Shown: positions 5,963 to 56,004, counted from the stretch's first letter. The stretch is 64,000 nucleotides of DNA from Minisyncoccota bacterium (GCA_035509435.1 DATJLR010000002.1:69774-133773); one strand, 5' to 3'. Translations and numbers: made by a program. Notes: a model not told the origin generated them from the letters alone.

Positions 5963-5984
5963 CGATAAATGATATACTGGATGT

Positions 5985-11872: not shown

Positions 11873-11919
11873 GCTTGATTATTATATTGCATCTTCTATA
11901 TAATGAGTACACTTCATTC

Positions 11920-12495: not shown

Positions 12496-12503
12496 CCATC
12501 ACC

Positions 12504-18542: not shown

Positions 18543-18546
18543 GGTT

Positions 18547-35313: not shown

Positions 35314-35405
35314 GATATTGAGTATAGCACTGTTTTTGCGCGGTCAAAGCACCAAAATCAGCCGCTGGCTCGTACAAATAAGAAGGTGAGCATTATAATA
35401 CTAGT

Positions 35406-37262
35406 ATGAACAAAAAACATGGGGGATTTGCGGTTGCGGCGTCGGTAGCGGCCAGTTTGCTCATGGCTTCGTCGGCCTATGCCTTGACGCCCACATTTTC
35501 GGCTTCCTATACGGGAAGCGGCGATTATGTGCAGGTGAACATCTCGAACGCGGATCCCAACTATAGCGTCCTTCTTGATACCAATAACAGCATCCAGGCG
35601 ATCGGCACCACGAATTCGAGCGGCGAGTTTTCGGATTCGATCAGCACGTCGGCCTATAATATCACCCCGGGTAGCGTGGTGTACGTGACGGTGGACGGTC
35701 AGCAGTCAAATTCGCTCACGTGGCCCTATACCACCGGCAGCAATTCCACGTTTTCTTTGAACCAGAGCGAACTTTCGCTCACGACCGGAGAGTCTGCTAC
35801 GATCACGGCGAGCACGGATGGCCCGTTCTTTCTTTCCAGCAATTCCAATCCGTCGATCGCCAACGTTTCCTTTAATGGTGACCAGATCGTTGTGGCGGCA
35901 AACACTGCCGGCAGCACGAACCTGACGGTCTGCCTTGTCTCGTCGACGGGAAGCTGCCAAACAGAGACCGTCAATGTCTCCGGTAGCGGCTCCACTACGA
36001 TCACCTTCAGCCAGAACAATTTGAGCATTCCCACCGGTCAGACCGCCACCGTGAACGTGAGCGGCGGGACGGGCGTATATACGATCAGCAATAACTCCAA
36101 TTCCGCCGTTGTCGGGGCATCGATCTCCGGCAATGTTGTCTCGCTCTACGCCTCGAATGTCGAGGGCACCGCATCTATCACTGTCTGTTCCACCAATATG
36201 AGTTCGTGCGGCGTGATCAGTGTCACCGTCACCACAAACTCCGATTATTCGTCGCTTGTCTTTAGCAATACCGCACCATCGCTTGCGGTAGGACAGTCCG
36301 TGAGCGTGAGCATCATCGGCGGCGTCGCGCCATATTATGTGAGCGGAAATTCCAATTCGAGCGTTGTAGGAACTTCGATCTCCGGAAATGTAGTGACCTT
36401 ATCGGGTATTGAAACGGGCGCCGCGAGCGTCACGATATGTTCCAATACCAATGTATGCCAGACGTTGCCCGTCACGGTCGGCGAATCCTCGTCGGAAGCC
36501 CTCTCCGTAGGCCAGACGAACGTCACGCTCGCCCCGGGAGGCAGCGATTCGGTCTCGATCTCCGGTTCGGGCAGTTATTATGTTTCAAGCAACAGTAATG
36601 GGAGCGTGGCGACCGCGGCGATCAGCGGCGATAACGTTGTATTCACCGGCATCACCGCAGGCACGGACGATGTAGGCGTCTGCGAGAACACCGGTCAGTG
36701 TGCCACGATCTACGTGACGGTCACCGGCTCTCCCGCGTCCACCGGCACCACGGTGACGCAGTCCACGGGTTCCGGCCTTACGCTTACGCAGGTGCTGTCC
36801 GCGGGGCAGGGCCTGAATATCCTCCTTTCCGGCGGCACTGAGCCGTACTCCATCTCCGTTGCCCCGAGTTCCATTGTGAGCGCTTCCGTAAACAGCGGCG
36901 ATGTCCTTACGCTTGCGGGCATCATTCCCGGCGAGACGTCGCTCACCGTCTGTTCCGCGAACGGTCTTTGTTCTCCGGTATATATCGATGTGACGGCAGC
37001 GGCAACGGCCACCACCGGCGCCACGACCGCATCGTCCGGTCAATATGACTTCACTACGTTCCTGGGATATGGCTCCACGGGCGCGGCAGTCACGGCGCTT
37101 CAGGAACAGCTGACGCGTGACGGCATCTATAGCGGTCCTATCACGGGTTATTACGGCGACCTTACGACCACCGCAGTGAAGACATTCCAATCTGATCACG
37201 GCATCTCATCCGTCGGTTACGTTGGCCCCTCAACGCGCGCGGCGCTGAATGCAGGTGATTAG
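35406..37262 (+). CDS. Secreted protein with ~6 bacterial Ig-like (Big_2-type) repeats and C-terminal peptidoglycan-binding domain
   Basis: Signal peptide. Repeated modules ending ...GTASITVCS / AASVTICS / TSLTVCS. C-terminus YDFTTFLGYGSTGAAVTALQEQLTRDGIY...TAVKTFQSDHGI (PG_binding_1). Confidence 0.7.
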   Translation: MNKKHGGFAVAASVAASLLMASSAYALTPTFSASYTGSGDYVQVNISNADPNYSVLLDTNNSIQAIGTTNSSGEFSDSISTSAYNITPGSVVYVTVDGQQSNSLTWPYTTGSNSTFSLNQSELSLTTGESATITASTDGPFFLSSNSNPSIANVSFNGDQIVVAANTAGSTNLTVCLVSSTGSCQTETVNVSGSGSTTITFSQNNLSIPTGQTATVNVSGGTGVYTISNNSNSAVVGASISGNVVSLYASNVEGTASITVCSTNMSSCGVISVTVTTNSDYSSLVFSNTAPSLAVGQSVSVSIIGGVAPYYVSGNSNSSVVGTSISGNVVTLSGIETGAASVTICSNTNVCQTLPVTVGESSSEALSVGQTNVTLAPGGSDSVSISGSGSYYVSSNSNGSVATAAISGDNVVFTGITAGTDDVGVCENTGQCATIYVTVTGSPASTGTTVTQSTGSGLTLTQVLSAGQGLNILLSGGTEPYSISVAPSSIVSASVNSGDVLTLAGIIPGETSLTVCSANGLCSPVYIDVTAAATATTGATTASSGQYDFTTFLGYGSTGAAVTALQEQLTRDGIYSGPITGYYGDLTTTAVKTFQSDHGISSVGYVGPSTRAALNAGD

Positions 37263-39490: not shown

Positions 39491-40144
39491 TCATCCGCCG
39501 TTCTTTCGGGCGAGGAATTCTTTTCCTTTGCCGCGGGCGGTGTTTATGGGAACGTCCCGTGCGCATAGTGGGCATTTTTCCGCGGACCATTTGTCGAGAG
39601 TGATGTCGACGAGCGAATAGAGCTCAGGAACATCGCCAATCTCAGCTGCCGTGACGCCGCCGCGATTGCAGATGGCGGCGACGCCACGGATGTCCCCGCC
39701 AAGAGCACGTACGGCCTGCACCACCGCCTTCACCGAACCGCCGGTGGTGAGCACGTCTTCGACAATAAGTACCCGCTTGCCAGGGATGAGCTTTTCATAT
39801 CCCCGCGCGAAGATGAATGTACCATCGTTCGTGGTGTCCTTTTCGGCATAGACCGCGAGCACGTCATTGATGTTCGTAATGTCCGTGAGCCTATGTGCGG
39901 TCCATTGCGAGAGGATGATGCCGCCCTTTTCCGGTCCGACGACGACCTGAATGTCGTCGAATTCAAATCGATCGGCGAAAAGTCGGCAAAGACGTGCTGT
40001 TTCCACAGTATGCGGATAGATCGCATCCTTGTTGACATACACCGATCCGTGATCGCCTTTCGTGTAGACGAAGTGGTCGTTCGTGAGCACGGCATTCAAC
40101 CGTCCCAGGATTTCCAACGCGACCTGTTCTGTCGTGGTGTTCAT
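39491..40144 (-). CDS. pyrE: Orotate phosphoribosyltransferase
   Basis: PRPP-binding motif VLIVEDVLTTGGS. Start at the ATG overlapping the pyrF stop (ATGA at 40141..40144); the track ORF starts at 40168. Confidence 0.9.
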   Translation of the reverse strand: MNTTTEQVALEILGRLNAVLTNDHFVYTKGDHGSVYVNKDAIYPHTVETARLCRLFADRFEFDDIQVVVGPEKGGIILSQWTAHRLTDITNINDVLAVYAEKDTTNDGTFIFARGYEKLIPGKRVLIVEDVLTTGGSVKAVVQAVRALGGDIRGVAAICNRGGVTAAEIGDVPELYSLVDITLDKWSAEKCPLCARDVPINTARGKGKEFLARKNGG

Positions 40145-41070
40145 CGGGTTGCAAGCTCCTCCCGGCACTGGGTGATGAGGTTGTGAAGCGTGAGGGTTTC
40201 GCGCCTCGCCGCTTCGGCAAAATCTTCGCCGTGCGAGGCAAAGATGATGCCGCGGGACGAGTTGATGATCATTCCCGCGCCGCGCGAGTCCATTGCCGCG
40301 CTGACCGTCGCTTTGACATCGCCACCCTGTGCCCCGATGCCGGGGATGAGGATCGGCGTGCCATCGACGACATTGCGGACGTTGCGGAGTTCATGGGGAT
40401 AGGTCGCTCCTACGACCACTCCGCAGTTTCCGTTTTTGTTCCAGGCGATGCTCACTTGGCAGGCGACATGAAGATACATCGGTGCATAACATCCAGGAAT
40501 CCCTATGGACCATCCGGTCGCGTGGCAGCGAGAGAGAAATTCAATCTCCCCTCTGCTTACGCCAACCTGAAGGTCTTGGAATTCACCCGCGCCGGGATTT
40601 GATGTCCGGCAGAGGATGAATATCCCTTTGTCGTCCCGATCAAGGAATGGCTGGAGCGCTTTTGCGCCGAGGTAGGGATGGAGCGTGATGGCGTCAGCCT
40701 GGAAATACTCGAATGCTTCACGCACATATCCGGCGTTGGTGCTGCCGATGTCCCCGCGCTTGGCGTCGAGGATCACGGGAATTTCCGGCGCAAAGTTGTG
40801 GATGTATTGTATCGTCCGCTGGAGCGCTGCGATGCCTTCGGCACCGTATCCCGCATAGGATGCGATGTTCGGCTTGTAGGCACACACGATCGTGGATGTC
40901 GCATTGACGATGGCCGCATTGAAGGTCACGATCGACCTGATGATGTCGTTGAAGCTCTTTGTGCGTACGGATTCCGGGATTTGCGCATAGTCGCTGTCCA
41001 ATCCGACGCATACGAATTTGCCGGCCGACCAGCGGGATTCAAGCAGGCTGCGGAAGTTTCTGTCTCCCAT
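40141..41070 (-). CDS. pyrF: Orotidine 5'-phosphate decarboxylase (type 2, long form)
   Basis: FVCVGLDSD, DAKRGDIGST and related OMPdecase motifs. 309 aa. Confidence 0.88.
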   Translation of the reverse strand: MGDRNFRSLLESRWSAGKFVCVGLDSDYAQIPESVRTKSFNDIIRSIVTFNAAIVNATSTIVCAYKPNIASYAGYGAEGIAALQRTIQYIHNFAPEIPVILDAKRGDIGSTNAGYVREAFEYFQADAITLHPYLGAKALQPFLDRDDKGIFILCRTSNPGAGEFQDLQVGVSRGEIEFLSRCHATGWSIGIPGCYAPMYLHVACQVSIAWNKNGNCGVVVGATYPHELRNVRNVVDGTPILIPGIGAQGGDVKATVSAAMDSRGAGMIINSSRGIIFASHGEDFAEAARRETLTLHNLITQCREELATR

Positions 41071-43628: not shown

Positions 43629-44054
43629 CTATTTATTGGCCCGGTGCTTTTCGCACTTACAGCCCTTGGGCTTGATGAACTTGTCGAAATATTCCTTGCC
43701 GTAGTCGTAGGTGAGCTCGGTTCCCGCCTTGATGCGTTTGCGGGAGAAGATGAATATCCTGTCGCCGGGACCGATCGCTTCGCAGTTCGGCCTGCACGAG
43801 TGGTTGATGTACCGCGCGCGGTTGGCGCGCACGTTCCCGTCGATCGTCTTGCGGGAGTTCACCTCAAAAAGATATCTGCCTTCGTCCTCGTCCGCCTCTT
43901 TGCTGCTCACCACGCGGCCGGTGTATTCGATGACGCAGACCCCTTTCGGGATATCCTCTTTGGTGAAGAGGCCTTTGCCGGTGAGCGAGCGGCGAACGGA
44001 AAGTTTGTAGCCCCGAGGGGTATATTTGGAGAGATGTTTTTTCATATGGCCCAA
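43629..44054 (-). CDS. SET-domain protein (putative lysine methyltransferase)
   Basis: RYINHSCRPNCE and GTELTYDYG, classic SET/post-SET motifs. 141 aa. Confidence 0.8.
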   Translation of the reverse strand: MGHMKKHLSKYTPRGYKLSVRRSLTGKGLFTKEDIPKGVCVIEYTGRVVSSKEADEDEGRYLFEVNSRKTIDGNVRANRARYINHSCRPNCEAIGPGDRIFIFSRKRIKAGTELTYDYGKEYFDKFIKPKGCKCEKHRANK

Positions 44055-44078: not shown

Positions 44079-44756
44079 TTACCATATATACGGCACAAGC
44101 CGATAGCGGACCTTCTGCGTGTATTCGGCATACCCCGGAAGATCTTTCTTCAATATTTTTTCTTCGTCGATCATCCGCCACAGAAGGATGGGAAAGAAGG
44201 GGACGATGAGGGCTATCGTCCACCATGAACCGAGCGCGAGCGGGATGCCCACAAAGAGCCATAATGCTCCCGCATACATCGGATGCCGCACGTGCGCGTA
44301 CGGGCCGCTCGAGACCACCTTTTGGTCAGCCGCCACGGTGATGTTCGCCGCCGCGAAGCTGTTCACGCGGATGACCCAGAAGATAAAGAGGAAAGAAAGC
44401 ACGATGATGAGATTGCCGAGCACGCTGCCCCATGCGGGAACCGGCGAGAGGCCGTAGCGATGGTCAAGCACGGCGAGGACGATGAAGGCAAAGAACGAGA
44501 AGATGATGAGCGATATGATGATCTTCTGCGCCGCGCCCTCCTCTTTCCACGGTCCGGCGTTCATCCTGCGCTCAAGGAGCGGGCGATCATAGAGCAAGAG
44601 GTATATCGTGAAGGCGATCGTCGAGAGCGCAAAGACGGCGAGAAAAAGCCAGCCCTGCCAGTACTGCCACGTTCCCGCGCTCACGTATATGAGCGCCACG
44701 AAGAACGCCATCCCGAGCACGCTTTGCATGATCGCTTTCCCGATGAGGGACCTCAT
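44079..44756 (-). CDS. Isoprenylcysteine carboxyl methyltransferase (ICMT)/phospholipid methyltransferase family membrane protein
   Basis: Multi-TM, C-terminal VSSGPYAHVRHPMYAGALWLFVGIPL motif of the ICMT/PEMT family. 225 aa. Confidence 0.8.
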   Translation of the reverse strand: MRSLIGKAIMQSVLGMAFFVALIYVSAGTWQYWQGWLFLAVFALSTIAFTIYLLLYDRPLLERRMNAGPWKEEGAAQKIIISLIIFSFFAFIVLAVLDHRYGLSPVPAWGSVLGNLIIVLSFLFIFWVIRVNSFAAANITVAADQKVVSSGPYAHVRHPMYAGALWLFVGIPLALGSWWTIALIVPFFPILLWRMIDEEKILKKDLPGYAEYTQKVRYRLVPYIW

Positions 44757-45062
44757 ACTCTAACGATACACCTGCTGGCGGCAAGCACAACTTGCTGCTC
44801 CGCATGATACGCGCCGTAAGAACCCACACTTACAGCCATGTAATGCCACGTGAGCAGACCTCAACGCCCAGTGTTTAGGGCTTTCTAGCCCGTAAATGCC
44901 CCCGTGTGCGATCGTTCGCCGCGGGTGAGGGTTGAGGAGGCGGTAAGGGGCGGGAGACGTGGGACATTAGCACGTTTCATCGGGCATAATGTTTCACTCG
45001 CCAAAAAAGGAAAATAGCCCACTTTTACCCAAGCATTACCTAATTTTTTAGAGAAAATCAAA

Positions 45063-45677
45063 ATGCCAATCAGATTTACCATCCCTAATAATTTCGGTAA
45101 GACGCAGATGCCACGACGTTTCACTATGAGTTCCCAAGAATCCAAGGAAACCGTTGAGGGCAAAGAAGGTCTTAGCGTCGCCGAACTGAAAAAGGGCGGC
45201 GTGTTCCGGGGTCGGCGCGTGGAAGCGCAATACGGGTTTCGATATGGCGAGTTCGAGATGATACTCGTCCACGATCCGATCGAGCTCGATTGGTACTTGA
45301 AGATTACGAATCCGGGGCCAAGAAACCGGAATAACGCCATCACGATCGTCGAGACCTCTTGCCACTATGGAGGCGTCCGGGAGTGGTTCGTGTGCCCTCG
45401 TTGCGAGCGTCGCTGCGGCAACTTGTACAAAGATGAAGATGACTTCGCCTGCCGGCGCTGCATGGATTTCGGATACGCTTCGCAAAGGGTGAACTATCGG
45501 AGCTTTGAGCCGACCATTGTTCGCATGAAGAAATATGAAAAAGAGATCGAAAAGAAACCCATTTACCAATCTTACAAAGGGAAGCCAACAAAACGTGCCC
45601 TGCGCTACGACAAGCTCTTGGAGCGGTTAGGATCGTGGAGCGAAGCTTTTAACCAGCGGGAAGCGGAGGAGCTTTAA
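45063..45677 (+). CDS. Hypothetical protein with CxxC...CxxC zinc-ribbon
   Basis: CPRCERRCGNLYKDEDDFACRRCMD motif, 204 aa, AT-rich codon usage. The overlapping minus ORF 44885..45343 is less protein-like. Confidence 0.5.
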   Translation: MPIRFTIPNNFGKTQMPRRFTMSSQESKETVEGKEGLSVAELKKGGVFRGRRVEAQYGFRYGEFEMILVHDPIELDWYLKITNPGPRNRNNAITIVETSCHYGGVREWFVCPRCERRCGNLYKDEDDFACRRCMDFGYASQRVNYRSFEPTIVRMKKYEKEIEKKPIYQSYKGKPTKRALRYDKLLERLGSWSEAFNQREAEEL

Positions 45678-45768
45678 CTTCATACTTGGGGATACATCAC
45701 GCTTCCCTTGGTGCTGTTATTTTTGTAAAATTAAAGTATTAAAACGGTCTAGCGCTCGTTTAATTCAA

Positions 45769-46389
45769 ATGGTTCTTACTAACGATAAACTCATACGTGC
45801 GGCTCTACGAGCTAACTTGGAACGGGACCTGCAAAGATACCGGGCAAAGAGCGGCCATCCAGCGCAAATTTTTGAAGAACTTGGGGTAAGGCACGGCGTT
45901 TCAAGGATTGACCTTGCCGTGATCAACGGCGTGATGCACGGCTATGAGATAAAGAGTGACCTAGACACACTTCAAAGACTCCCGGATCAGGTAGATGCCT
46001 TTAGCTCCGTATTCGACAAGCTAACGCTCGTCGTCGGAAAAAAACATTTGTACGATGCGATAAACATCCTACCTGATTGGTGGGGGGTCTTGCTTGCAAA
46101 AGTTGATGACGATGGAACCTTGATTTTCCAATCTATCAGGAAGGCGAGTAAAAATTTTACGCAAGACCCCCATTCGATTGCGAAGCTTTTATGGAGGGAG
46201 GAGGCGTTACAAATTTTAGAGAATAAGAATAGAGCGAAAGGAGTTCGATCAAAAACACGCGACGTAATTTATGAGAGGTTGGCTGAGGTCATGCCGATCG
46301 GTGCACTGAAAGAGAGGGTGAGGGATGCACTATTGGTTTCTCGCGAAGGCTGGCGATCTGATCTACCACTAGCTTTAAGTGGTGATTAA
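45769..46389 (+). CDS. PD-(D/E)xK nuclease-fold protein (sce7726-family-like)
   Basis: RIDLAVING...GYEIKSD gives the D...ExK catalytic signature in the expected beta-strand context. ~206 aa, matching the uncharacterised sce7726-type proteins that pair with sce7725-type partners (family assignment from memory, unverified). Confidence 0.55.
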   Translation: MVLTNDKLIRAALRANLERDLQRYRAKSGHPAQIFEELGVRHGVSRIDLAVINGVMHGYEIKSDLDTLQRLPDQVDAFSSVFDKLTLVVGKKHLYDAINILPDWWGVLLAKVDDDGTLIFQSIRKASKNFTQDPHSIAKLLWREEALQILENKNRAKGVRSKTRDVIYERLAEVMPIGALKERVRDALLVSREGWRSDLPLALSGD

Positions 46390-47506
46390 TTTCCCAAGCA
46401 ATCCAATCTACTGCGCGGCCGGTACCTTTAAGTGAGGTATCTTTTATGTATCGGTGGAAATGCTTCGCCTTCTCAGCAATTTGTTTATCTCCCCAGCAGT
46501 GTTTTTCTCCGTAAAATAAATTTTTATCATCAATGATGTCTTCTACGAGTAGTTTCGCGTTTGCTAAATAATATTGGAACTCGGCTACTTTTCCCTTCAT
46601 AACCAGCCAATCTTTTTCGAGAGTGTATTTGATGCTTGTGGTTGAATTATAGTACTGAAGCGCTTCAACGAAAATGGGGTTTCGAATAGTGTAATCGGCG
46701 TAATTGGGCTTTCTAACGAGTTTTTGGGTTCGGACATGTTGAAACCAACCATGCCAATCCGCACGTGGTAAGAAGTTAGGTTTATCAAGCTCGCACTCGC
46801 CAACATCTTTTGGAAAAGCACCGCTTGCGAATATGAAGTTTTTCCAGCTACCTAAGTTTTTTATTTTTTGGCTGGCGGTCAAAAATTGTAAATACAGCCC
46901 GTCTTTTTCTTGGATTGCTTTGATATCGACCAATAAGTCGATCTCCTTTTCGGCTAAGTTAAATGCAGCCAAAAAGGCGCCGATTTTTTCATTTAGCTTT
47001 TCTGGATCGAGGAGGTCAGAGGATGCAATTCTCAGGCAAAGGCCCTCTTTGTATTTTCCATAAAGAGAACAAGCCGCTGCTTTTATGCTGTCATCATCGT
47101 TCAAATTCAAAACCGGGATCAACTTCGCCCCCAATCCCATAGCTGCTGGTACAATTGAATTTAATGCGTCTACTTTTAGCTGGGTAGTTAGCTCGCCCTC
47201 CATCAGTAATGTAAAGTCGACAAAGATAGGTCTAGAGCCCCACGCTTTAAATATCTCATTCGGGATTTCGTTTATGCGCTCTTCCTTAAATTTTTTCACC
47301 ACTTCCGCAAAGATTTCCTCTTGAGATTTTTTTACTTTCTTTTTCTCCCCGTTCTGGTGAACAATTTTGGAATTATTCACTGTCGGCATTACAAGCTCGA
47401 TCAGAGGCAGTAGAGCGTCTTTGGTTTTTTCATCCAAAGGCTCGAGCGCCCACTGTTCGGCCGGCTTCCACTTAAGTATTGGGGTGTACTGTTCTTTATT
47501 TAACAT
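46289..47506 (-). CDS. ~400-aa uncharacterised partner protein (sce7725-family-like)
   Basis: Long AT-rich ORF, convergent with and overlapping the nuclease-like gene by ~100 nt. Start placed at the internal ATG (MLNKEQYTPILKWKP...) 11 nt inside the upstream higA-immA gene. No catalytic motif recognised by eye. Confidence 0.5.
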   Translation of the reverse strand: MLNKEQYTPILKWKPAEQWALEPLDEKTKDALLPLIELVMPTVNNSKIVHQNGEKKKVKKSQEEIFAEVVKKFKEERINEIPNEIFKAWGSRPIFVDFTLLMEGELTTQLKVDALNSIVPAAMGLGAKLIPVLNLNDDDSIKAAACSLYGKYKEGLCLRIASSDLLDPEKLNEKIGAFLAAFNLAEKEIDLLVDIKAIQEKDGLYLQFLTASQKIKNLGSWKNFIFASGAFPKDVGECELDKPNFLPRADWHGWFQHVRTQKLVRKPNYADYTIRNPIFVEALQYYNSTTSIKYTLEKDWLVMKGKVAEFQYYLANAKLLVEDIIDDKNLFYGEKHCWGDKQIAEKAKHFHRYIKDTSLKGTGRAVDWIAWEINHHLKLVVDQIASLREKPIVHPSPSLSVHRSA

Positions 47507-48722
47507 GTTTTTTCTTTCCCGATTTCTCGTCGGGGAAAAGAACACGGACCTTTGTTTCGCCTACGATGCTGTTTAAATAAACCCATTTTCCGCTTTCATG
47601 TCTCATTTTCCCGGCGACAATAGCTACGTGAACGCCTAACTCTTTAGCCAGACTATTAGCTGCTATGGATGAGGGGACGAGCTTAGCAGCGCTTATTTCC
47701 CATTTATCGGAAGGTACCAAGGCTTCGCCTGCGAGCTTATCCGCTTCTCTTTCTTTTGTCCCGATATCCGATCCTTTTGGATCTTCAAGTTCGTCATAGA
47801 AGAAATCGATATCCTGATCATAATGCAAAGCCACGTGAGCCAACTCGTGCATTAGCGTAAACCAAAAATTATCTAGTCTATCGTATCTAAGAGTCAGTCC
47901 GATAATCGGATTTTTTTTATCCGCCATAATAGCCATCCCATCTAAAGATGTTTTGGAAAGATGAGGCACTATTACAAGAGTTATCCCGTGCTTTTTTAGA
48001 TAGTCTTTAGCGAGAATTGGTCCATTCTCTTGGATGCTTAATTTTGCTAGCGCCTGCATGAAATCGAGGTTAACCGTCCCGGGTTTATAGGGTGCGTGCG
48101 TGCTTTCTTCTTTTGCTTTTTTTAGAACGCGCGTAGCCCAAGCCGCTAACGCATGTTTATCCGTAAGAGGAGAAGAACGATAATTAGATTTCCGTAAGCC
48201 CATAATTTGCGCAGAAAACTTTGTTTGCGAAAAAAACTCTTTTAGTAAGTCCACCTTGTTCATTTTTTTGACTGATCCAGACCCAAAATAACCACGTTCT
48301 TCCATTTCGGCAATGAGGGCGTTGTTCCAGTTTTGATATTCTGAATTTTCATCTAGTGTCGGCTTTTGAATGAGGACTTTAGCTGGAATCCCAAGACCAA
48401 GCTCCAAAGCTCTAATCATTTCTATGCTAAGAGGTCTTTTCCCGGAGAGTATTTCTGAAACTCTACTAGGACTCCCAAGATACGGAATTAGGTCGGCAGG
48501 TTTTAGATCGGCCTGTTCCATTCTAAATTTAATTGCATCTATGGGACTAGGCAGCGCCGAAGGAAAATATCTTTTTTCATAATCCTCAATCAGCGTACTC
48601 AGCAGGGCGAGTTGCTCGCCTTCTGCTGAATCGGGGTTTGGATCATGGATCATAAGCGTCTCAAGTAATTTGAGCGCTTCTTGGTAATCTGATTCAGTTT
48701 TTATGACTTTGATTATGTTCAT
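47496..48722 (-). CDS. higA: HigA-like HTH (XRE) antitoxin fused to ImmA/IrrE-family metallopeptidase (HEXXH)
   Basis: N-terminus MNIIKVIKTESDYQEALKLLETLM...SRVSEILSGKRPLSIEMIRALELGLGIPAKVLI (HigA-type HTH). C-terminal LMHELAHVAL HEXXH zinc-peptidase motif (DUF955/ImmA). Confidence 0.75.
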   Translation of the reverse strand: MNIIKVIKTESDYQEALKLLETLMIHDPNPDSAEGEQLALLSTLIEDYEKRYFPSALPSPIDAIKFRMEQADLKPADLIPYLGSPSRVSEILSGKRPLSIEMIRALELGLGIPAKVLIQKPTLDENSEYQNWNNALIAEMEERGYFGSGSVKKMNKVDLLKEFFSQTKFSAQIMGLRKSNYRSSPLTDKHALAAWATRVLKKAKEESTHAPYKPGTVNLDFMQALAKLSIQENGPILAKDYLKKHGITLVIVPHLSKTSLDGMAIMADKKNPIIGLTLRYDRLDNFWFTLMHELAHVALHYDQDIDFFYDELEDPKGSDIGTKEREADKLAGEALVPSDKWEISAAKLVPSSIAANSLAKELGVHVAIVAGKMRHESGKWVYLNSIVGETKVRVLFPDEKSGKKKHVK

Positions 48723-48735
48723 GTTTTTAATTTCA

Positions 48736-49017
48736 CTAGGTCCAAGTATCGTATTCTTTGTGGGTCCCAATTTTTTTAACTAAGGCTATTTGATTTTTAT
48801 AGTTGATCTGAGCCAACAACCTGTACTTATTTCCACAAATATCGAACACGACCTGTTGATCCCCTAAGAGGCTGGCTTTTTGATACCTGCTCTTGAGAGC
48901 ATGGGGAGTGGCCCAGCCAGCATCCTCGACTTCCGCCTCCCATGCTTCAATCTGAGCTCTGGCATCTGGATAATTATCCTTGAAGTCGGAAAGTAGCTGT
49001 TTGCCTAGTAATTTCAT
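48736..49017 (-). CDS. higB: Type II toxin HigB (RelE/ParE fold)
   Basis: 93 aa; MKLLGKQLLSDFKDNYPDARAQIEAWEAEVEDAGWATPHALKSRYQKASLL...KIGTHKEYDTW, typical of HigB-family toxins encoded upstream of HigA. Confidence 0.75.
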   Translation of the reverse strand: MKLLGKQLLSDFKDNYPDARAQIEAWEAEVEDAGWATPHALKSRYQKASLLGDQQVVFDICGNKYRLLAQINYKNQIALVKKIGTHKEYDTWT

Positions 49018-49143
49018 ATCTTTTTGCCGGGGATTTAATCATTATTTGGGTTCCCATATTGGGAAGTATGGACGGGTTTATCCGGAATGTCAAGCTCCCC
49101 CCAGAGAGGGGGGGGGATGAGTAATTCGGTGCCGAATAGGCTT

Positions 49144-50625
49144 CTAATTTTGTGGTTCCAACTCTTGCTCTATCTCCTCAAACGATTCCACTGCGGCGCG
49201 GAGGTGCTCGAGAATTTCGGCTGCGATTACCTTCGGCTCAGGCAGGTTTTCCATGTCGGTCACGCTGTCATCTTTGAGCCAGAAGATGTCGAGGTTCACT
49301 TTATCGCGTGCAATGATCTCGCTGTACGCAAACCGCTTGAAACGCTCGGACTCCTTTCGCTTGTGTCGATTCTCCGGATTGTAGGCCGCAAGGAATTCGG
49401 CGAAGTCCTCGTCAGCGAGCTTGCGCTCTTTGAGCGTGAAGTGCTTGTTGGTACGCAAGTCGTAAATCCACACTTCCTTCGTCTGTGGGTCTTTGCTCGC
49501 TGGTTTGTTATCAAAGAAGATGACGTTTGCTTTGACGCCCTGCGCGTAGAAGATGCCGGTCGGCAGCCGCAGGATCGTGTGCAGGTCGGTCGTCTCCAAG
49601 AGCTTGCGACGAACTGTCTCACCGGCCCCGCCCTCAAAGAGCACGTTGTCCGGAACGACGACCGCCGCGCGGCCGTCAGCTTTCAGCATCGTGCGAATAT
49701 GCTGCACGAAGTTAAGCTGCTTGTTTGAGGTAGACGCCCAGAAATCCTGTCGGTTGTATGAAAGTGCCTCGCGTGATACCGCACCGCTTTCTTCAGCGGT
49801 TACGACGTAGCTCGACTGACGGCCGAAAGGAGGATTGGCGAGCACGTAATCGAAGCGCATGCCGCTGTCCGCGAGCAAACTATCATCGCGATGGATTGGC
49901 GGCGTATCGCCGGCATCGCCGATGCCGTGCAAAAAGAGATTCATGACGCAGACGCGCGCAGTCTCCGGCACAAGCTCCCAGCCGGTAAAAGTTTTCTTTT
50001 TCAAAAATGCCAGCTCATCGCGGCCAAGCTCATCGCCGTAGGTACGTAACAGATAATCCTGCGCCGAAAGGAAGAAGCCGCCTGTCCCGCAAGCAGGATC
50101 GGCAATCGTCTTCTTGGGCTGCGGCCGAAGTGCAGCAACCATGGCGCGGATGAGCGGACGCGGCGTGAAGTATTGTCCGGCTCCGCTTTTCGTATCCGAG
50201 GCAACGCGCTCGAGGAGCGATTCGTAAATCTCGCCTTTGACGTCCACGTTAAGGCCGACCCAGCTCGTTTCTTCGATCATATCGATAACGCGTTTGAGGA
50301 GGGCGGGCGTTTGAATTTTATTCTGCGCTCGAGCGAAGATCATGCCGAGCATGCCGGGCTTATTGCCGAGCGCCTCGAGAATCTCGATGTAGTGCGCTTC
50401 CAGTTCCGCACCCTTCTGCGCCACGAGCGTGGGCCACGCGTACTTCGCTGGGATGCCGAGATCGCGATTGTAAGGCGGTTTGGCATACTCATCAGCCATC
50501 TTGAGAAAAAGCAGGATCGTGAGCTGCTGGAGATAGTCGCCCGTCGAGACGCCGGCATCCAAAAGAACGTCGCATAAACTCCAGATACGGTTGCTGATAT
50601 TTGAAACTTGAGGTGAAGTGGCCAT
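49144..50625 (-). CDS. hsdM: Type I restriction-modification system methyltransferase subunit
   Basis: N6-adenine MTase motifs (DPACGTGGF motif I, VLANPPFG motif IV), HsdM N-terminal domain. 493 aa. Confidence 0.92.
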   Translation of the reverse strand: MATSPQVSNISNRIWSLCDVLLDAGVSTGDYLQQLTILLFLKMADEYAKPPYNRDLGIPAKYAWPTLVAQKGAELEAHYIEILEALGNKPGMLGMIFARAQNKIQTPALLKRVIDMIEETSWVGLNVDVKGEIYESLLERVASDTKSGAGQYFTPRPLIRAMVAALRPQPKKTIADPACGTGGFFLSAQDYLLRTYGDELGRDELAFLKKKTFTGWELVPETARVCVMNLFLHGIGDAGDTPPIHRDDSLLADSGMRFDYVLANPPFGRQSSYVVTAEESGAVSREALSYNRQDFWASTSNKQLNFVQHIRTMLKADGRAAVVVPDNVLFEGGAGETVRRKLLETTDLHTILRLPTGIFYAQGVKANVIFFDNKPASKDPQTKEVWIYDLRTNKHFTLKERKLADEDFAEFLAAYNPENRHKRKESERFKRFAYSEIIARDKVNLDIFWLKDDSVTDMENLPEPKVIAAEILEHLRAAVESFEEIEQELEPQN

Positions 50626-50629
50626 AGTT

Positions 50630-52078
50630 TTATTTTATCGCCGTCTTTGATCGACCGCGCGTCTTCGATATTACCTTCGTTCGCGGCGCTGCGTCGACAC
50701 GCTTGGCATTGATGCGTTCAAGCAATGCGGCCGCTGGCTCGTCGCTCGAATCCTGCGGTACAAGCTTGCCCGTGAACGCCTGCTGCAAAATGGACTGACG
50801 AAGATGCTCGGCACGTTGGAGATTGGCGGATAAAACCTGTTCGATCTCGTCGGCGACGCTCAGTCGACATTCAACTTCGGAAACGATACGCTTTTGCTCA
50901 GCGAGGGGTGGTAGCGGTACGGCAATACTCGCAACGATGCTCAAATTCAGATTGGGTTGTACTCCACCGCTCGAATGCCCTCTTACATCCTCATAATTTT
51001 TCCAGAAGAAAATCTTGAGATAATTCTTTACCTCTGAATCCATAACCTGCACTGCGGCAATCGCTTGATTTGTAGTAGCAGAGATCATTAATTCCGAGCA
51101 CTTACCGCGCGTTTTCCCTTCGCCATACATAGCAAGCAGCAAAGTACCTGCTGGATACAATGTCAGATTCGTTTCTTTCAATGCCTTTTCTGTCACGAAC
51201 TCCGATGCTTCTTTGACCTGTAAGTTATTAAGCGCCCCGCTTGTGATCCAAGCTATGTCTCCATTATGGTAATAAGACGAATCACCTCGATTTGGAGTTG
51301 CGCCGGTGCCTACAAGCGAAAGCTGTGCAACGCTCGCCCATGTCCATCCCTCCGGCAGTGCCGACAATCCGGTCGTGTCTGGCGATGCCGGTTCTTTGTA
51401 CTTACCGCGGCCGTTCCATTTTTCATGGCGCTCTTTGAGGATACGCGTGAGGAGCTCGGAGCCAGTTTCATAGCTGCGGCCTTCGGATCGAGCAACCTCG
51501 GCTTCCGTGGGTACGAGTTTGCCGGAGCATGCGGCGGCAAGAACGCTCGCACGATAACGCTTCAATTCCACCTGCGCTTCCTCAAGTTCCTTGATGCCAG
51601 AATCGAGCTCTGAAATAAATTCATCGACTTTAGTAACGATACGTTCCTGCTCCGCGAGGGGCGGCAGTGGAAATTCACGTTCCAGTGTTTTTGTTACAAC
51701 CACGAATGGCTGTGCTGCGCCGCTTCGTATCCAAAAATGCTCGTTGTTGAGGCGATACCAAAGGAAGCGGACGTTGATCGCGTGATCGCGAGGCCGTACC
51801 ACGTGTGTGTTTGCGATAGCAGACCATTTCCCAGATGCAAGAAAACACTTGCCGCACCGCGCTCCGACAGCAGATACAATCACGGCATCTCCTTCTTCTT
51901 CATATCCATCACGCCAAACATCCTGACCGGTTGCGCTGAATGCCGCAAATAATTTTTCGCCAGCATGGGACGAAAGACGTCCTTTGATAAGCTTTGAATT
52001 ACCGGAGTGGTGCTCCGTTACATCAGCGAGCGTAGCGGCAGCCCATCCTTGTGGAATTTTTTCTGTATTGTTGCTCAT
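50630..52078 (-). CDS. hsdS: Type I restriction-modification system specificity subunit
   Basis: 482 aa with two target-recognition domains separated by conserved coiled-coil spacers (LPPLAEQERIV... and LPPLAEQKRIVSEV...). Confidence 0.85.
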   Translation of the reverse strand: MSNNTEKIPQGWAAATLADVTEHHSGNSKLIKGRLSSHAGEKLFAAFSATGQDVWRDGYEEEGDAVIVSAVGARCGKCFLASGKWSAIANTHVVRPRDHAINVRFLWYRLNNEHFWIRSGAAQPFVVVTKTLEREFPLPPLAEQERIVTKVDEFISELDSGIKELEEAQVELKRYRASVLAAACSGKLVPTEAEVARSEGRSYETGSELLTRILKERHEKWNGRGKYKEPASPDTTGLSALPEGWTWASVAQLSLVGTGATPNRGDSSYYHNGDIAWITSGALNNLQVKEASEFVTEKALKETNLTLYPAGTLLLAMYGEGKTRGKCSELMISATTNQAIAAVQVMDSEVKNYLKIFFWKNYEDVRGHSSGGVQPNLNLSIVASIAVPLPPLAEQKRIVSEVECRLSVADEIEQVLSANLQRAEHLRQSILQQAFTGKLVPQDSSDEPAAALLERINAKRVDAAPRTKVISKTRGRSKTAIK

Positions 52079-54828
52079 ACGGTTGCGAGTTCGCGCTGTA
52101 GATCGGTGAGGATTTCTTCATAGCCCTCACCGAAGACCTCATAGACGCCGGCTAATCCACCATGCTGCACGAGCGGCGGCAGATCAAGGTCGTCCTTAGT
52201 GATTTCGAGCGACGTCGCGATGTGGTCTTTGATAAGCGTGAGCCAATCGATTTGGGCCGGTGTAAATGTCTTACCTTCCTTCTGCATTTTTGCCAACCAT
52301 CCAGCAAAGCGCTCCTCGACTTCCTCGCGGAACGGCGCAAGCGCCGACTGCGGTTCGATGGCGTGGCGTACTAAAGCGACGACATCGGGCAGGGTTTTTG
52401 CGGTGCCGGGCTTCACTTTCGGCCCCTCGATCATCCGGAATGCGTACCAAATTTCCTGCGGCGGTAACGCGGCGTCTTTGAGTTGCTCGGCCAATTCCTT
52501 CGCCATCGCATAGGTTATGTGGCGCTTGTTGTAGGGCTGACTGTAAAAAATCTGAAGCGCAACGACATCGTCACGGTGCTTCGCGATAAAGTCCTTGAAT
52601 TTCTGAACGGTCGCTTTGGCACGCTCAAGCGCCTGTGCGTCCGTGCCCGAGGAGAGCACGGAGTCCGGCGTTATCTTGTCGATAATTTGGTCATGTTCCT
52701 GCCGGACGGTCTCGATGAGATCGCGCAGCTTCGGATCGTCGAACGGCGCACACGCTTCAGTGACGAGCGCTTTCGCCGCCGCCGCTATCGCCGCTTCGTC
52801 CGGCTCTGGCGCACCGGTCGTCTGTTTGGCGCGATCCGCTTGGATGTCGAGATCGTAGGCATCAAGGAGCGCGCGGGCGAGATCGGCCGGACTCTTGCCG
52901 CCGGCAACTTTCGCGATGCGTTCCCGTTCCGCTGGTTCGAGCTCCCGATCCAAGCGAGCAAGACGGTTACCGAGCGACGTGAGCGTGTCCTCGTCGCGCA
53001 CGCCCAAGGCCGCCTGCATGAGGAGCGCCTTCATACTAACCGACGGTCGGCGTTCGAGGGGCCGCGATGCCTGCTTCGGCGATTCCGTGACGCCCACGGC
53101 ATCAACGATGACGAAGTGTGTCTTCGCGTGAGCCGCCGATGACACTTTCTTGAGATCATCTCCTGAGAGCACGCGCGTACCGCGACCCTTCATCTGCTCA
53201 AAGTAATTCTCGGAACGGACATCACGCATAAACAAAAGACATTCGAGCGGCTTCACGTCCGTGCCGGTCGCAACCATGTCGACGGTCACGGCTATTCTCG
53301 GATTGTAGTCATTGCGGAAATCGGAAAGCGTCTGCTCCGGATTCTCGGCGTTGTAGGTGATCTTGCGGCAGAACGCATTCCCTTCGGCGAATTCTTCGCG
53401 GATGATCGTGATAATGTCGTCGGCGTGGGAATCGGTCTTCGCGAAGACGAGCGTCTTCGGAACTTCGAATTCTTGTTTACCGTCTTTGTCCGTAAAGCGA
53501 TCAGGAAAGAGCGACGGCAGCACGCGTTTGAACTCGCGGATGACCGTGCGGATTTGATTCGGGTTCACGACGCTGCGGTCAAGCTCGCTTGAGGGGTAGA
53601 TGACATCCTCGTCAACCTGCTCCCAGCGCTTGCGGCGCGTAAGACGGCTGCGCTTGTCCACCCATTCACCGGCCTCGATCTGGCCGCCCTGTTCGCCGAC
53701 GGCCGTCTTGATGCGGTAGACGTCATAACCCACATTCACGCCGTCGACGACGGCCTCTTCGTGTGTGTACTCGGAGACGACATTCTGATTAAAAAATCCG
53801 TAGGTGCGAGCGTCGGGCGTGGCGGTCAGGCCGACCATGAACGCATCGAAGTAATCGAGTACCTGCTTCCAGACGTTGTAAATAGATCGGTGACATTCGT
53901 CGATGATAATGAGGTCGAAAAACTCCGGCGGATAGGTGGCGTTGTAGACCACGTCTCGCATTTGCTTGAGTGCAGCTTCGCCAACCGAATGCTCTTCGGC
54001 AGATTCATCAAGCTCCTCGCCGCGGAGGATCGAATACATGCGCTGGATGGTGCTCACGCACACCTGCGAACTCGGATCGATAGTGCCGGAGCGAAGCCGC
54101 TGCACGTTGTAGAGCTCCGTGAACTTGCGGCTGTCATCCTGCGGCGTGTAGGCCTGAAATTCCTGTTCCGCCTGCCTGCCGAGATTCCGTGTATCAACGA
54201 GAAAGAGTACGCGCTTGCCCTTGGCGAATTTCAGATAGCGATACACCGCCGTGATAGCGGTGTACGTCTTACCCGATCCGGTGGCCATCTGGACGAGAGC
54301 GCGAGGCCTTGCTTCTTTCAGCGACTTCTCGAGATTGTCTATGGCAACGATTTGGCATTGGCGCAGGCCTTTATGGTCGAGCGCCGGCAGATCAAGCAGC
54401 CGGGCGCGGAGCGTCTTCGCTTCGGCGTGCCATGCGGCAAGCGTTTCGGGCCGATGGAAATTAAAAATGTCCCGGGCCCGCGGCTTCGGATCGCGCATGT
54501 CGGTGAACCGCGTCTCCTCGCCGGTTGATTCGTAGACGAACGGAAGCGGCTCGTTGCCGACGCGCCACTTGATCTCGCTCACGGCATAACGCTCCGCCTG
54601 CGTCTCAACTTTCGAGAGCACGGTGCCTGCCGGTTTTGCTTCGACGACCCCAACATGCACACGGTCGACCATCAAGAGGTAATCAACCGGGCCGGTGTCA
54701 GTGGGATATTCGCGGACGGCGATACCTACGCCTGCTCCGGGGTTCATCTCCCGATAATCCTGAAGAATCCAACCCGCTGCGATCAGCTGTTTGTCTATGT
54801 TTTCACGTGCTCGTTGCTCGGGAGTCAT
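52075..54828 (-). CDS. hsdR: Type I restriction enzyme endonuclease/helicase subunit
   Basis: 917 aa; N-terminal PD-(D/E)xK region, SF2 helicase motifs (MATGSGKT Walker A, DECH box IIIDECHRS, motif VI), C-terminal HsdR domain. Overlaps the hsdS start (ATGA). Confidence 0.92.
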   Translation of the reverse strand: MTPEQRARENIDKQLIAAGWILQDYREMNPGAGVGIAVREYPTDTGPVDYLLMVDRVHVGVVEAKPAGTVLSKVETQAERYAVSEIKWRVGNEPLPFVYESTGEETRFTDMRDPKPRARDIFNFHRPETLAAWHAEAKTLRARLLDLPALDHKGLRQCQIVAIDNLEKSLKEARPRALVQMATGSGKTYTAITAVYRYLKFAKGKRVLFLVDTRNLGRQAEQEFQAYTPQDDSRKFTELYNVQRLRSGTIDPSSQVCVSTIQRMYSILRGEELDESAEEHSVGEAALKQMRDVVYNATYPPEFFDLIIIDECHRSIYNVWKQVLDYFDAFMVGLTATPDARTYGFFNQNVVSEYTHEEAVVDGVNVGYDVYRIKTAVGEQGGQIEAGEWVDKRSRLTRRKRWEQVDEDVIYPSSELDRSVVNPNQIRTVIREFKRVLPSLFPDRFTDKDGKQEFEVPKTLVFAKTDSHADDIITIIREEFAEGNAFCRKITYNAENPEQTLSDFRNDYNPRIAVTVDMVATGTDVKPLECLLFMRDVRSENYFEQMKGRGTRVLSGDDLKKVSSAAHAKTHFVIVDAVGVTESPKQASRPLERRPSVSMKALLMQAALGVRDEDTLTSLGNRLARLDRELEPAERERIAKVAGGKSPADLARALLDAYDLDIQADRAKQTTGAPEPDEAAIAAAAKALVTEACAPFDDPKLRDLIETVRQEHDQIIDKITPDSVLSSGTDAQALERAKATVQKFKDFIAKHRDDVVALQIFYSQPYNKRHITYAMAKELAEQLKDAALPPQEIWYAFRMIEGPKVKPGTAKTLPDVVALVRHAIEPQSALAPFREEVEERFAGWLAKMQKEGKTFTPAQIDWLTLIKDHIATSLEITKDDLDLPPLVQHGGLAGVYEVFGEGYEEILTDLQRELATV

Positions 54829-54973
54829 TACCCCTGATGATAGCGGAAAATCAAGGATTTGTTAATGATTTTTTAATCTTTTATTTACCTTAATTTTAAG
54901 GTATCAACTCGTAAGAATTGGACTAAGAATGGTCGTGGTCCAAAGACCCGCAAAAAGTGAGGCAGATAAAGAC

Positions 54974-55000
54974 GAAACCGAGGTTTTCACCTCGGTTCGT
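54974..55000 (-). terminator. Hairpin terminator downstream of the tRNA (minus strand)
   Basis: AACCGAGG-ttttcac-CCTCGGTT stem-loop immediately 3' of the tRNA acceptor end, followed on the minus strand by a T-rich tract. Confidence 0.55.
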
Positions 55001-55009
55001 CCAGCTTTG

Positions 55010-55291
55010 CTCCGCGACCAGGACTCGAACCTGGAACCATCGCCTTACACGTTTCCTAATGTTTCCAAAAGGCGTGGACTATATCATTGCCGTGGTCCGC
55101 CGCGCGAGGCGGGGACGGTAGGCATCTCGGTATCTAGTCTCTACGGTGCCCCTCCTTGCGGAGGGTTCCCACGGTGTTCGCATGCCCTTGCGGGGTTAGC
55201 CTTCACCGTTATCCCAAGATTGTTCATCGTGCCGTTTCCGACACAAGCTGCCTTCTGACAGGGCGCCGCTCTACCATTGAGCTATCGCGGA
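55010..55291 (-). tRNA. tRNA gene interrupted in the anticodon loop by a group I intron (anticodon probably GUU/Asn, alternatively UGU/Thr)
   Basis: Minus-strand reading: 5' half TCCGCGA-TA-GCTC-AATGGTA-GAGC-G-GCGCC-CUGU..., 3' half ...UAA-GGCGA-UGGUU-CCAGG-UUCGAGU-CCUGG-UCGCGGA-G. The 7-bp acceptor stem is perfectly complementary and D and T arms are canonical. CCA is not encoded. The ~210-nt insert carries group I R- and S-like elements. Confidence 0.85.
55048..55259 (-). ncRNA. Group I self-splicing intron within the tRNA anticodon loop (~210 nt, no ORF)
   Basis: Minus-strand sequence contains GTAGAGACTAGA (R/P7-like) and ATGATATAGTCC (S-like) conserved elements. Intron begins after an exonic U, ends with G, and a 4-bp P1 (exon CUGU / intron GCAG) is possible. 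Exact boundaries are ±2 nt. Confidence 0.7.
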
Positions 55292-55341: not shown

Positions 55342-56004
55342 TCAGCCCGCGCTCGGCGGCGGCTGTACCGTCAAGCTGCCGTCCGGATTCTGGTCCACCT
55401 CGAAGAGGATATTTGCGGTGCCGCCGGTCGTGAGGATGATCGGGAACGTGCCGGGGTCGGGAAGCGTGAAGACGACCGGCTGGGCCGCGTACGTTTCGCC
55501 TTGCGTGCCGTTGCAGGTGCCCGAATCGGGGAAGGTGAACTGCTGGGTGACGGGCGGCGCAAGGTCGCCGTTCTCGTCGGCGATCAGGCGCATGGTGAGC
55601 GGCACGCATTCGGAGGCGGCGCCCATCTGTACCTGGACATCCACCGTGAGTTGCGCTCCGGAGATCTGCGCGCCGGTGACGGCAAGCGCTTCGTTGCCTT
55701 GTGTCCAGGTGATCGCCGCGGCGCCGACGGACGTCGACCCCGGTGTTGATGACGGCGTGCTTGTCGCCCCGGCGGGGGATGACGACGCAAGCGAGAGTGT
55801 TGATGATGCGAACGCGGTGGAGCTTGCGGTAGAGGTCGGCTCCGCGGCGATCGGCGTGCTCGTGCTGAATATCCCGCCGTCGCTCGACATGGAGTCCACC
55901 ACGTAAGTGCCGCCGCCGCTATAGAAAACGACGTAGAACGTGATCGCGACCATCACCACCGCGACGATGGACAACGTGATAAGGATATTCCTCAATGTCA
56001 TCAT
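55342..56004 (-). CDS. Membrane-anchored Ser/Thr-rich hypothetical protein
   Basis: N-terminal TM anchor MMTLRNILITLSIVAVVMVAITFYVVF, S/T/A-rich linker, ~90-aa C-terminal domain with two Cys. Confidence 0.45.
   Translation of the reverse strand: MMTLRNILITLSIVAVVMVAITFYVVFYSGGGTYVVDSMSSDGGIFSTSTPIAAEPTSTASSTAFASSTLSLASSSPAGATSTPSSTPGSTSVGAAAITWTQGNEALAVTGAQISGAQLTVDVQVQMGAASECVPLTMRLIADENGDLAPPVTQQFTFPDSGTCNGTQGETYAAQPVVFTLPDPGTFPIILTTGGTANILFEVDQNPDGSLTVQPPPSAG

Follow-up and report, generated by a model that had tools for sequence, protein, structure and literature searches.

We analyzed 64,000 nucleotides of one strand from a Minisyncoccota bacterium (GCA_035509435.1, DATJLR010000002.1:69774-133773; this whole stretch is called the window below, and positions are counted from its first letter). 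On the 3' side of a tRNA-Asn(GUU) gene, the segment from about 44757 to 55008 holds a type I restriction-modification (R-M) operon, a PD-lambda-2-type cassette, and an orphan gene. This segment is very probably a horizontally acquired composite defense island of two layers, whose recombinase module was lost or never co-transferred. The first layer, or backbone, would consist of an EcoAI/EcoEI-like hsdR-hsdS-hsdM operon and a 204-aa gene (p204), with a GC content similar to that of the host. The second layer would be a low-GC PD-lambda-2/cII cassette that lies between hsdM and p204, where a related element (L115) has other cargo, and that may have arrived later or separately. Acquisition would have taken at least two steps. 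The island is most likely the remnant of a serine-recombinase element and, with the recombinase module lost or never co-transferred, would now be fixed in place. The preliminary description had already placed a horizontally acquired defense island at the tRNA. Its view is borne out by the absence of the genes from this site in all seven comparable relatives, by the occurrence of hsdRSM on serine-recombinase elements elsewhere, and by the wide transfer of the cassette.

The immune systems of Patescibacteria (candidate phyla radiation, CPR) are poorly charted, and their genomes are tiny, so that each accessory gene is costly. The locus gives an example of such a genome with a complete type I R-M set and a PD-lambda-2-type module. 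Every component of the island is of a known kind, and current concepts are left unchanged.

The tRNA-Asn 3' flank was readable in seven relatives (L002, L004, L005, L097, L100, L101, and L102/L103), and island genes were found there in none. To the right of the tRNA, synteny was kept through a 220-aa gene, ribonucleotide reductase (RNR) beta, RNR alpha, and beyond; RNR beta of the window is 95% identical to that of several Patescibacteria/Paceibacterota metagenome-assembled genomes. On the 3' side, each type of flank had its own content. In L002, with the same flank in L102, a large serine recombinase gene directly abuts the tRNA-Asn and is followed by two genes of no known function and AbiV. 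L005 and L097 share a flank with an ABC transporter pair, after which L005 has a serine-recombinase element, 1.7 kb downstream of the tRNA. The flank of L004 consists of genes without known function, a GNAT gene, and an ABC pair, followed by an ICMT gene 49% identical to that at 44079-44756 of the window. In L100, 2.3 kb of small genes precede the OMP decarboxylase gene (window 40141-41070), from where collinearity continues to 34.9 kb. L101 has 5.8 kb before a homologue of the gene at 32.7 kb of the window. Synteny beyond the island was regained in three relatives (L004, L100, and L101). Because its content differs by relative, the tRNA-Asn 3' flank is a variable hotspot. The island content of the window is specific to this genome among those compared; comparison with syntenic genomes, a check named in the preliminary description, gave the same gene order in none of the seven.

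The arrangement resembles tRNA-associated genomic or defense islands and the P4/P2 hotspots, as variable defense cargo lies 3' of a tRNA (AbiV in L002; R-M and PD-lambda-2 in the window) and the tRNA 3' end (55009) faces hsdR. It differs from typical tRNA islands in that the window lacks an integrase and att sites, and in that the recombinases found at the site in relatives are large serine enzymes, not tyrosine integrases. The island was probably delivered by serine-recombinase elements at this tRNA-Asn hotspot. In L002, the recombinase open reading frame (ORF; 11663-13348, minus strand) reads through the tRNA-Asn gene (11815-11889, plus strand) on the opposite strand. This direct contact or overlap of the two genes suggests that the element attaches at the tRNA 3' end or within it.

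Between 54828 and 46289, every large gene is encoded on the minus strand, beginning with the R-M operon. The first gene, hsdR (52075-54828, 917 aa), encodes an EcoAI/EcoEI-like restriction subunit with the Pfam domains ResIII, DEAD, and EcoEI_R_C (the last at 1.2e-33), and it matches PADLOC REase_I. It is followed by hsdS (50630-52078, 482 aa), a specificity subunit with two target-recognition domains (two Pfam Methylase_S matches; PADLOC Specificity_I, 1.4e-69). The third gene, hsdM (49144-50625, 493 aa), encodes an N6-adenine methyltransferase subunit (Pfam N6_Mtase, 3e-68, and HsdM_N; PADLOC MTase_I, 4e-186). A DECH motif in HsdR and an NPPF motif in HsdM are visible in the translations. 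Judged by these predicted products, the three genes are a complete type I R-M set. The set is like the type IB systems EcoAI and EcoEI in its HsdR with a ResIII/DEAD motor and EcoEI_R_C, its HsdM with N6_Mtase and NPPF, and its HsdS with two target-recognition domains. It departs from the type IB models in the gene order R-S-M and in the HsdR scores, which fall below the NCBIfam equivalog cut-offs: the best match was PRK11448 (1e-109, 368 bits vs a cut-off of 729), and the EcoAI-type model gave 1.5e-61 (209 vs 550 bits). By analogy with its homologues, the enzyme would methylate the host DNA and cleave unmodified incoming DNA.

The relatives of this operon reside on mobile elements. HsdR is 88-89% identical to the proteins P0127 and P0126. 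Locus L115, a metagenomic contig of 246 kb, contains a large serine recombinase, three small ORFs, and hsdR-hsdS-hsdM at 88/81/90% identity. These are followed by four ORFs without known function, a 63-aa ORF, and a p204 homologue of 38% identity, and the element sits between dnaE/PGA_cap and rplJ. In L116, hsdRSM at 89/49/93% identity precedes a 63-aa ORF, a C5 methyltransferase, a Z1-domain protein, and a serine-recombinase fragment, which is 57% identical to the tRNA-Asn-adjacent recombinase of L002. At the DNA level, the window is homologous to the hsd operons of these two loci from position 54852/54850 onward. Because both contexts are recombinase-adjacent and lie in unrelated chromosomal settings, hsdRSM, in L115 together with p204, travels on serine-recombinase elements. 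The hsdM-to-p204 slot of L115 (15627-18508, plus strand) is filled by four co-directional ORFs of 186, 217, 136, and 423 aa. The first shows a weak PDC-M19A/HsdS-like match, the only match in the set, and the four are candidates for uncharacterised defense cargo. The 63-aa ORF, ending in ...LFD, stands beside hsdRSM in both L115 (18568-18759) and L116 (8728-8919) and is absent from the window.

The second layer is distinguished by its composition. In bins of 500 nt, GC is 0.39-0.47 over about 45.5-49.2 kb and 0.55-0.64 in both flanks; in 2-kb bins across the 64 kb, it drops below 0.51 nowhere except in the island dip. Against a background of 46 ORFs (GC 0.580 ± 0.033; third-position GC, GC3, 0.695 ± 0.097), the four cassette genes have GC values of 0.42-0.47 (z -3.3 to -4.8), with 0.469 for the cII-like gene, 0.424 for Beta, and 0.419 for PD-lambda-2 B. 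Their GC3 of 0.38-0.47 is 2.3-3.2 SD (standard deviations) under the background. The values of hsdM (0.557, z -0.7) and hsdR (0.581, z 0.0) cannot be separated from the background, and their GC3 is native too. Lower values were obtained for hsdS (0.514) and for the 204-aa ORF (0.517). Pooled GC is 0.433 for the cassette, 0.558 for the hsd operon, and 0.575 for the remainder of the window. The cassette GC is unameliorated, which argues for its recent arrival; the hsd genes are older, or else their donor had a similar GC. Recalculated GC and GC3 were not uniform, as the preliminary description had held. Its GC dip at about 44.9-49.1 kb and the return to genome-like values in hsdMSR were both recovered, with the lower hsdS. 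The abrupt left edge was not: the fall is gradual there, and 44.75-45.7 kb, including the 204-aa ORF, has a GC of 0.49-0.52.

The native GC and GC3 of hsdM and hsdR would also fit an ancestral block that was lost in the relatives, with the low GC of the cassette due to gene-specific constraint. The distance of the relatives, and the different flank in each, could be read in the same way. This scenario would have to accommodate the absence of every island gene from the site in 7/7 relatives and the same operon beside recombinases in unrelated chromosomal contexts. The low GC3 of the cassette and the spread of B homologues of 65-73% identity across phyla and into an archaeal bin speak against it as well. 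We regard it as very improbable.

The cassette starts beyond a 126-nt spacer (49018-49143), which contains a promoter-like site on the minus strand at 49093-49065 (TTGACA-17-CATACT; a pattern match only). The number of such sites in the consensus scan was not above the shuffled expectation. The first gene, PD-lambda-2 A (48736-49017, minus strand), encodes a HigB/RelE-like protein of 93 aa (Pfam HigB_toxin, 3e-26; PADLOC PD-Lambda-2_A, 5.9e-36). The second, PD-lambda-2 B (47496-48722, minus strand, for the 408-aa form; the longest ORF starts at 48770), encodes a fusion of an Xre helix-turn-helix (HTH) domain and an M78 (ImmA/IrrE) metallopeptidase. B matches PADLOC PD-Lambda-2_B at 5.8e-145 over 399 of 402 profile positions, carries Pfam Peptidase_M78 and HTH_3 and a HELAH motif, and is identical to the 408-aa protein P0001. 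PD-lambda-2 C (46289-47545, minus strand, with a likely start near 47506) belongs to the P4 Beta family (Pfam Beta_protein, 2e-53; PADLOC PD-Lambda-2_C, 1.1e-39). These three genes are adjacent and co-directional, with spacers of 9-13 nt. A P4 cII-like gene of the sce7726 family (45769-46389, plus strand; NCBIfam sce7726_fam, 2.8e-47, 161 bits vs a cut-off of 70; PADLOC 'cll', 1.7e-27) converges on the Beta gene, and the two genes share 101 nt at their 3' ends (46289-46389).

We sampled seven further contexts of the cassette (L088, L090, L092/093, L107, L108, L109, and L110). All seven, which belong to several phyla, had the four-gene module: HigB, HTH-M78, and Beta, joined by a cII-like gene that converges on Beta and overlaps its 3' end. 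By gene calls, the Beta/cII overlap in these loci measures 28-72 nt; such a convergent overlap could serve antisense or transcriptional-interference regulation. All sampled cassettes have a low GC (0.33-0.44), mostly in low-GC hosts, which fits the arrival of the window copy from a lower-GC donor. The copies frequently neighbor R-M genes or recombinases. Protein B has thousands of homologues. Apart from B itself, the closest reach only 71-73% identity and come from Schekmanbacteria, Scalindua, Patescibacteria, and a Thaumarchaeota bin, a pattern of frequent transfer. Identities of 65-73% across phyla and into an archaeal bin are a signature of horizontal transfer. Plasmids were considered as the source of the cassette and rejected: their B homologues are 39-44% identical and form bare HigB + ImmA pairs without Beta or cII. 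On viral contigs, only distant homologues of B (≤40% identity) were found.

In five of the eight loci (the window, L088, L090, L108, and L109), R-M genes stand no more than 7 kb from the cassette. Some of these loci would suit an arrival of the 10-kb block at once, as a pre-assembled R-M and PD-lambda-2 unit. In L090, a complete type I R-M system stands directly upstream of HigB in the same orientation; in L088, an hsdR C-terminal fragment, 46% identical to window HsdR, neighbors HigB; and in L108 and L109, the cassette has R-M genes a few kb away. However, the type I system of L090 is of another family, with no tblastn match to the window hsd proteins. The closest hsdRSM operons (L115 and L116, 88-93% identity) have no cassette and carry other genes after hsdM, and the GC of the two parts is sharply different (0.558 vs 0.433). 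A single arrival is therefore unlikely. The L088 fragment itself (5915-6418, minus strand) directly precedes HigB on an unrelated contig, and its peptide matches the C-terminal ~180 aa of window HsdR with 46% identity. It resembles a degraded type I R-M system beside the same cassette.

The strong composition change, in a sequence taken from a metagenome-assembled genome, could also have been produced by an assembly or binning chimera of the low-GC segment. Such an artifact would require two exact joins in intergenic spacers, with all flanking ORFs intact. Moreover, the cassette is embedded between hsdM and p204, which share one element in L115, and the island proteins are all recorded on one Paceibacterota contig of 439 kb. 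A chimera is thus extremely improbable.

Several points weigh against acquisition as a composite island in two steps. The order of the steps, backbone and then cassette, is drawn from a single comparator, L115. The different type I system directly upstream of the cassette in L090, a Patescibacteria locus, makes a joint transfer of R-M and cassette conceivable. The compositionally native hsdM and hsdR mean that composition alone is no proof of their acquisition. The comparators are distant, with amino-acid identities of 72-82% in RNR alpha. A same-species empty site was not found in scans with RNR beta and the 220-aa protein, which gave relatives ≤63% identical in the latter. Within the 64-kb window searched, the boundaries show no recombinase, att repeat, or other scar, and the limits of the island are consequently set by composition and distant relatives.

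The composite island would provide two lines of immunity. By analogy, the R-M system would act as first-line restriction, and the cassette as a toxin-antitoxin-like abortive-infection system, as in E. coli. PD-lambda-2 of E. coli comprises three genes: B is toxic alone, A rescues, and C is needed for abortive-infection defense against lambda-vir (PMC9519451). The Beta-like C is needed for defense, not for toxin neutralization (PMC9519451). The three proteins of the system of Vassallo et al. 2022 (PMC9519451) recur in the window with order and orientation unchanged and with strong PADLOC matches. The window locus differs from the three-gene definition by the additional, conserved, convergent cII-like (sce7726) gene and by its Patescibacteria host. 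The preliminary description had spoken of TA (toxin-antitoxin) genes. The toxin-antitoxin-like architecture holds; a plain toxin-antitoxin pair does not, given the PD-lambda-2-type A/B/C assignment by PADLOC and the cII-like gene.

The Beta and convergent cII/sce7726 genes are also those of P4 gop-beta-cII (Ghisotti 1990 as cited in Rousset et al. 2022, PMC9122126; PADLOC Rst_gop_beta_cll), which protects against lambda and P1 (PMC9122126). PD-lambda-2 and gop-beta-cII are both toxin-antitoxin-like abortive-infection systems active against lambda. Unlike in P4, there is no gop here, HigB and the Xre-peptidase occupy the upstream 'toxin' position, and Beta and cII share 101 nt at their 3' ends, where P4 has a terminator between the two genes. 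No island protein matched PADLOC gop. With HigB-like and Xre-peptidase genes upstream and no gop, the cassette is related to gop-beta-cII and is not a member of it. The topology of Beta followed by convergent cII was found in P4 (gop-beta then cII), in prophage Rac-SA53, and on an Agrobacterium plasmid with a more distant Xre partner. Its recurrence with different upstream genes marks the Beta/cII pair as a conserved core with exchangeable upstream partners. The convergent cII-like gene is present in 8/8 loci including the window and ties PD-lambda-2-type loci to gop-beta-cII. This suggests that the three-gene definition of PD-lambda-2 is incomplete.

The same toxin-antitoxin-like architecture would suit a cassette that acts in this host mainly as an addiction (stabilization) module or a regulator and not against phages; on plasmids, HigB + ImmA/IrrE pairs stand alone without Beta or cII. 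The window locus, in contrast, has the full three-gene signature of the experimentally validated PD-lambda-2 with strong scores. It has kept Beta and cII, and the E. coli C protein serves defense, not neutralization. The neighbors of the cassette in other loci are defense genes. An addiction role is accordingly doubtful.

The adjacency of the defensive cassette to R-M genes may be ordinary defense-island clustering. A guard relationship to R-M is possible. The gop-beta-cII system is set off by a phage accessory gene that is linked to ral, an anti-restriction gene. For a guard coupled to restriction, PrrC within type IC hsd loci is an analogue. A more far-reaching model is conceivable. The hsdRSM...p204 unit would be a serine-recombinase-borne carrier with a swappable defense slot after hsdM, the cassette would be coupled to R-M as an abortive-infection guard that fires when a phage disables restriction, and the cII-like protein would be a fourth PD-lambda-2 component. 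We consider this combination a tentative proposal, with a small chance of being right as a whole.

The missing recombinase and att site of the composite island were sought directly. A tblastn search of the whole 64 kb with 11 serine/tyrosine recombinases and transposases gave no real match, and all island ORFs were assigned, with no integrase among them. A general repeat search of the window found no copy of the tRNA 3' end, nor did a fuzzy k-mer search of both strands from 38 to 55 kb with the 3' part of the tRNA. The preliminary description, which had reported neither integrase nor att repeat and had proposed a search for a copy of the tRNA 3' end, proved correct in this respect. The 11-nt motif AAGYTGGAYGA, present just after the tRNA in the window and in L002, was rejected as an att core; it occurs in the window at chance frequency and has no second copy at the left boundary. 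With a tRNA-to-hsdR gap of only 180 bp, the recombinase module is missing altogether. Large serine recombinases are not known to leave long direct repeats. Since the elements at this site and around the cargo in relatives use such enzymes, this would account for the missing att repeat, which is no strong evidence of age. Of the 'old or decayed integration' proposed earlier, decay is supported by the absent recombinase module; old age is not, given the unameliorated cassette GC and the weak bearing of the att repeat on age.

Within the short gap between hsdR and the tRNA, an AT-rich spacer upstream of hsdR (54829-54960, minus strand; GC 0.34) carries a promoter-like site (54865-54837). This spacer contains or adjoins the right junction of the island. 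Just 3' of the tRNA, the consensus scan found a terminator-like hairpin with a 10-bp stem and a T run (54975-54998, minus strand), again a pattern match only.

The right-hand anchor of the island is the tRNA-Asn(GUU) gene at 55009-55291 on the minus strand (exon 1, 55291-55258; exon 2, 55047-55009), which is interrupted by an intron of 210 nt (55048-55257). ARAGORN in default mode called no tRNA in the 64-kb window, and Rfam at the gathering score reported neither the tRNA nor the intron there. The minus strand from 55291 to 55009 nevertheless has the acceptor, D, and T arms of a tRNA, split by about 210 nt. Intronless tRNA-Asn(GTT) alleles stand at the same site in L002, L004, L097, and L099, downstream of the same 220-aa and ribonucleotide-reductase genes. 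Blastn against relatives placed the exon ends at 55258 and 55047, and ARAGORN accepted the joined exons as a 73-nt tRNA-Asn(gtt). In its intron mode, ARAGORN found the 210-nt intron and labeled the gene tRNA-Thr(tgt); we rejected this label, as the intronless alleles are Asn(GUU). The intron-containing tRNA of the preliminary description is thus real. A promoter-like site of the tRNA was found at 55339-55312 by the consensus scan.

The insert is supported as a group I intron by its predicted fold, and guanosine-dependent self-splicing would be expected of such an intron. It lies in the anticodon loop, between the U of CUGU and UAA. It matched Rfam Intron_gpI (RF00028) over the full length with 19.1 bits (E = 0.016), under the gathering score of 50. 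In P1, the exon CUGU pairs with the intron, the 5' splice site being marked by a U.G pair, and the final base of the intron is a G. We aligned six intron-bearing alleles (the window, L005, L100, L101, L102, and L103). The acceptor, D, anticodon, and T stems of the tRNA were paired in 6/6, and 99.6% of the cells in helices P2-P9 and the P7 pseudoknot of the intron were paired. Compensatory changes were seen at 13 pairs, compared with 0-2 in slid controls, and none of 500 shuffles attained the observed value. P1, P3, and P7 were invariant and therefore uninformative on covariation. An archaeal BHB-type intron was dropped as an alternative; the organism is bacterial, and the insert has a group I core and obeys the splice-site rules.

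Bacterial tRNA group I introns include those of cyanobacterial tRNA-Leu(UAA) and tRNA-fMet, Azoarcus tRNA-Ile, and Agrobacterium tRNA-Arg. Like these, the window intron is small (~200 nt), has no ORF, sits in the anticodon loop, and has a U.G pair at the 5' splice site, a terminal G, and a conserved GUAGAGACUAGA / GAUAUAGUC core. Unlike in the listed cases, its host is tRNA-Asn(GUU), it scores 19 bits in Rfam against the gathering score of 50, and its presence varies among close relatives, independent of the flank type. L002 without and L102 with the intron have the same recombinase-element flank, and L097 without and L005 with the intron have the same ABC-transporter flank. Intron presence that does not track the flank, in an intron without a homing-endonuclease ORF, suggests repeated gain or loss. 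It has been noted earlier that tRNAs of CPR bacteria can escape detection when they carry group I introns (PMC8172020). Here, standard tRNA and Rfam scans missed the tRNA-Asn because of a divergent group I intron, and automated annotation would score the genome as lacking tRNA-Asn.

At the opposite end, the left-most island gene is p204 (45063-45677, plus strand), with 204 aa and a C4 zinc-ribbon-like motif; the annotated form has 183 aa and starts at 45126. It matched no family in Pfam, NCBIfam, or PADLOC and showed no similarity to recombinases. Three non-self homologues were found in 5.8 billion proteins. The L115 homologue (38% identity) lies 3.2 kb downstream of hsdM, and the gene neighborhood of another homologue, P0123, was uninformative on function. 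The AlphaFold2 model of p204 (mean pLDDT 55.7) was too poor for a fold search.

Outside the island, the native left flank begins with a membrane methyltransferase gene of the ICMT/PEMT family (44079-44756, minus strand; GC 0.571, GC3 0.78; Pfam PEMT and ICMT). It is adjoined by a gene for a bacterial SET-domain protein of 141 aa (43629-44054, minus strand; Pfam SET, 1.6e-24). On the other side, the tRNA is adjoined by the gene for the 220-aa protein (55342-56004, minus strand), which is rich in Ser/Thr/Ala, has an N-terminal membrane helix, and belongs to no family. This protein is fast-evolving, with about 60% identity where RNR beta has 95%, and its position is kept across relatives. Elsewhere in the window, an ORF at 34984-35409 (plus strand) has a GC of 0.491 and no Pfam family. 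An overlapping frame, 34900-35313, is 76% conserved as protein in L100, and the region is therefore probably native despite its composition. Another low-GC gene at 17991-18644 (minus strand; GC 0.471, z -3.3) encodes a serine hydrolase/alpha-beta hydrolase of 217 aa and may be another small acquisition.

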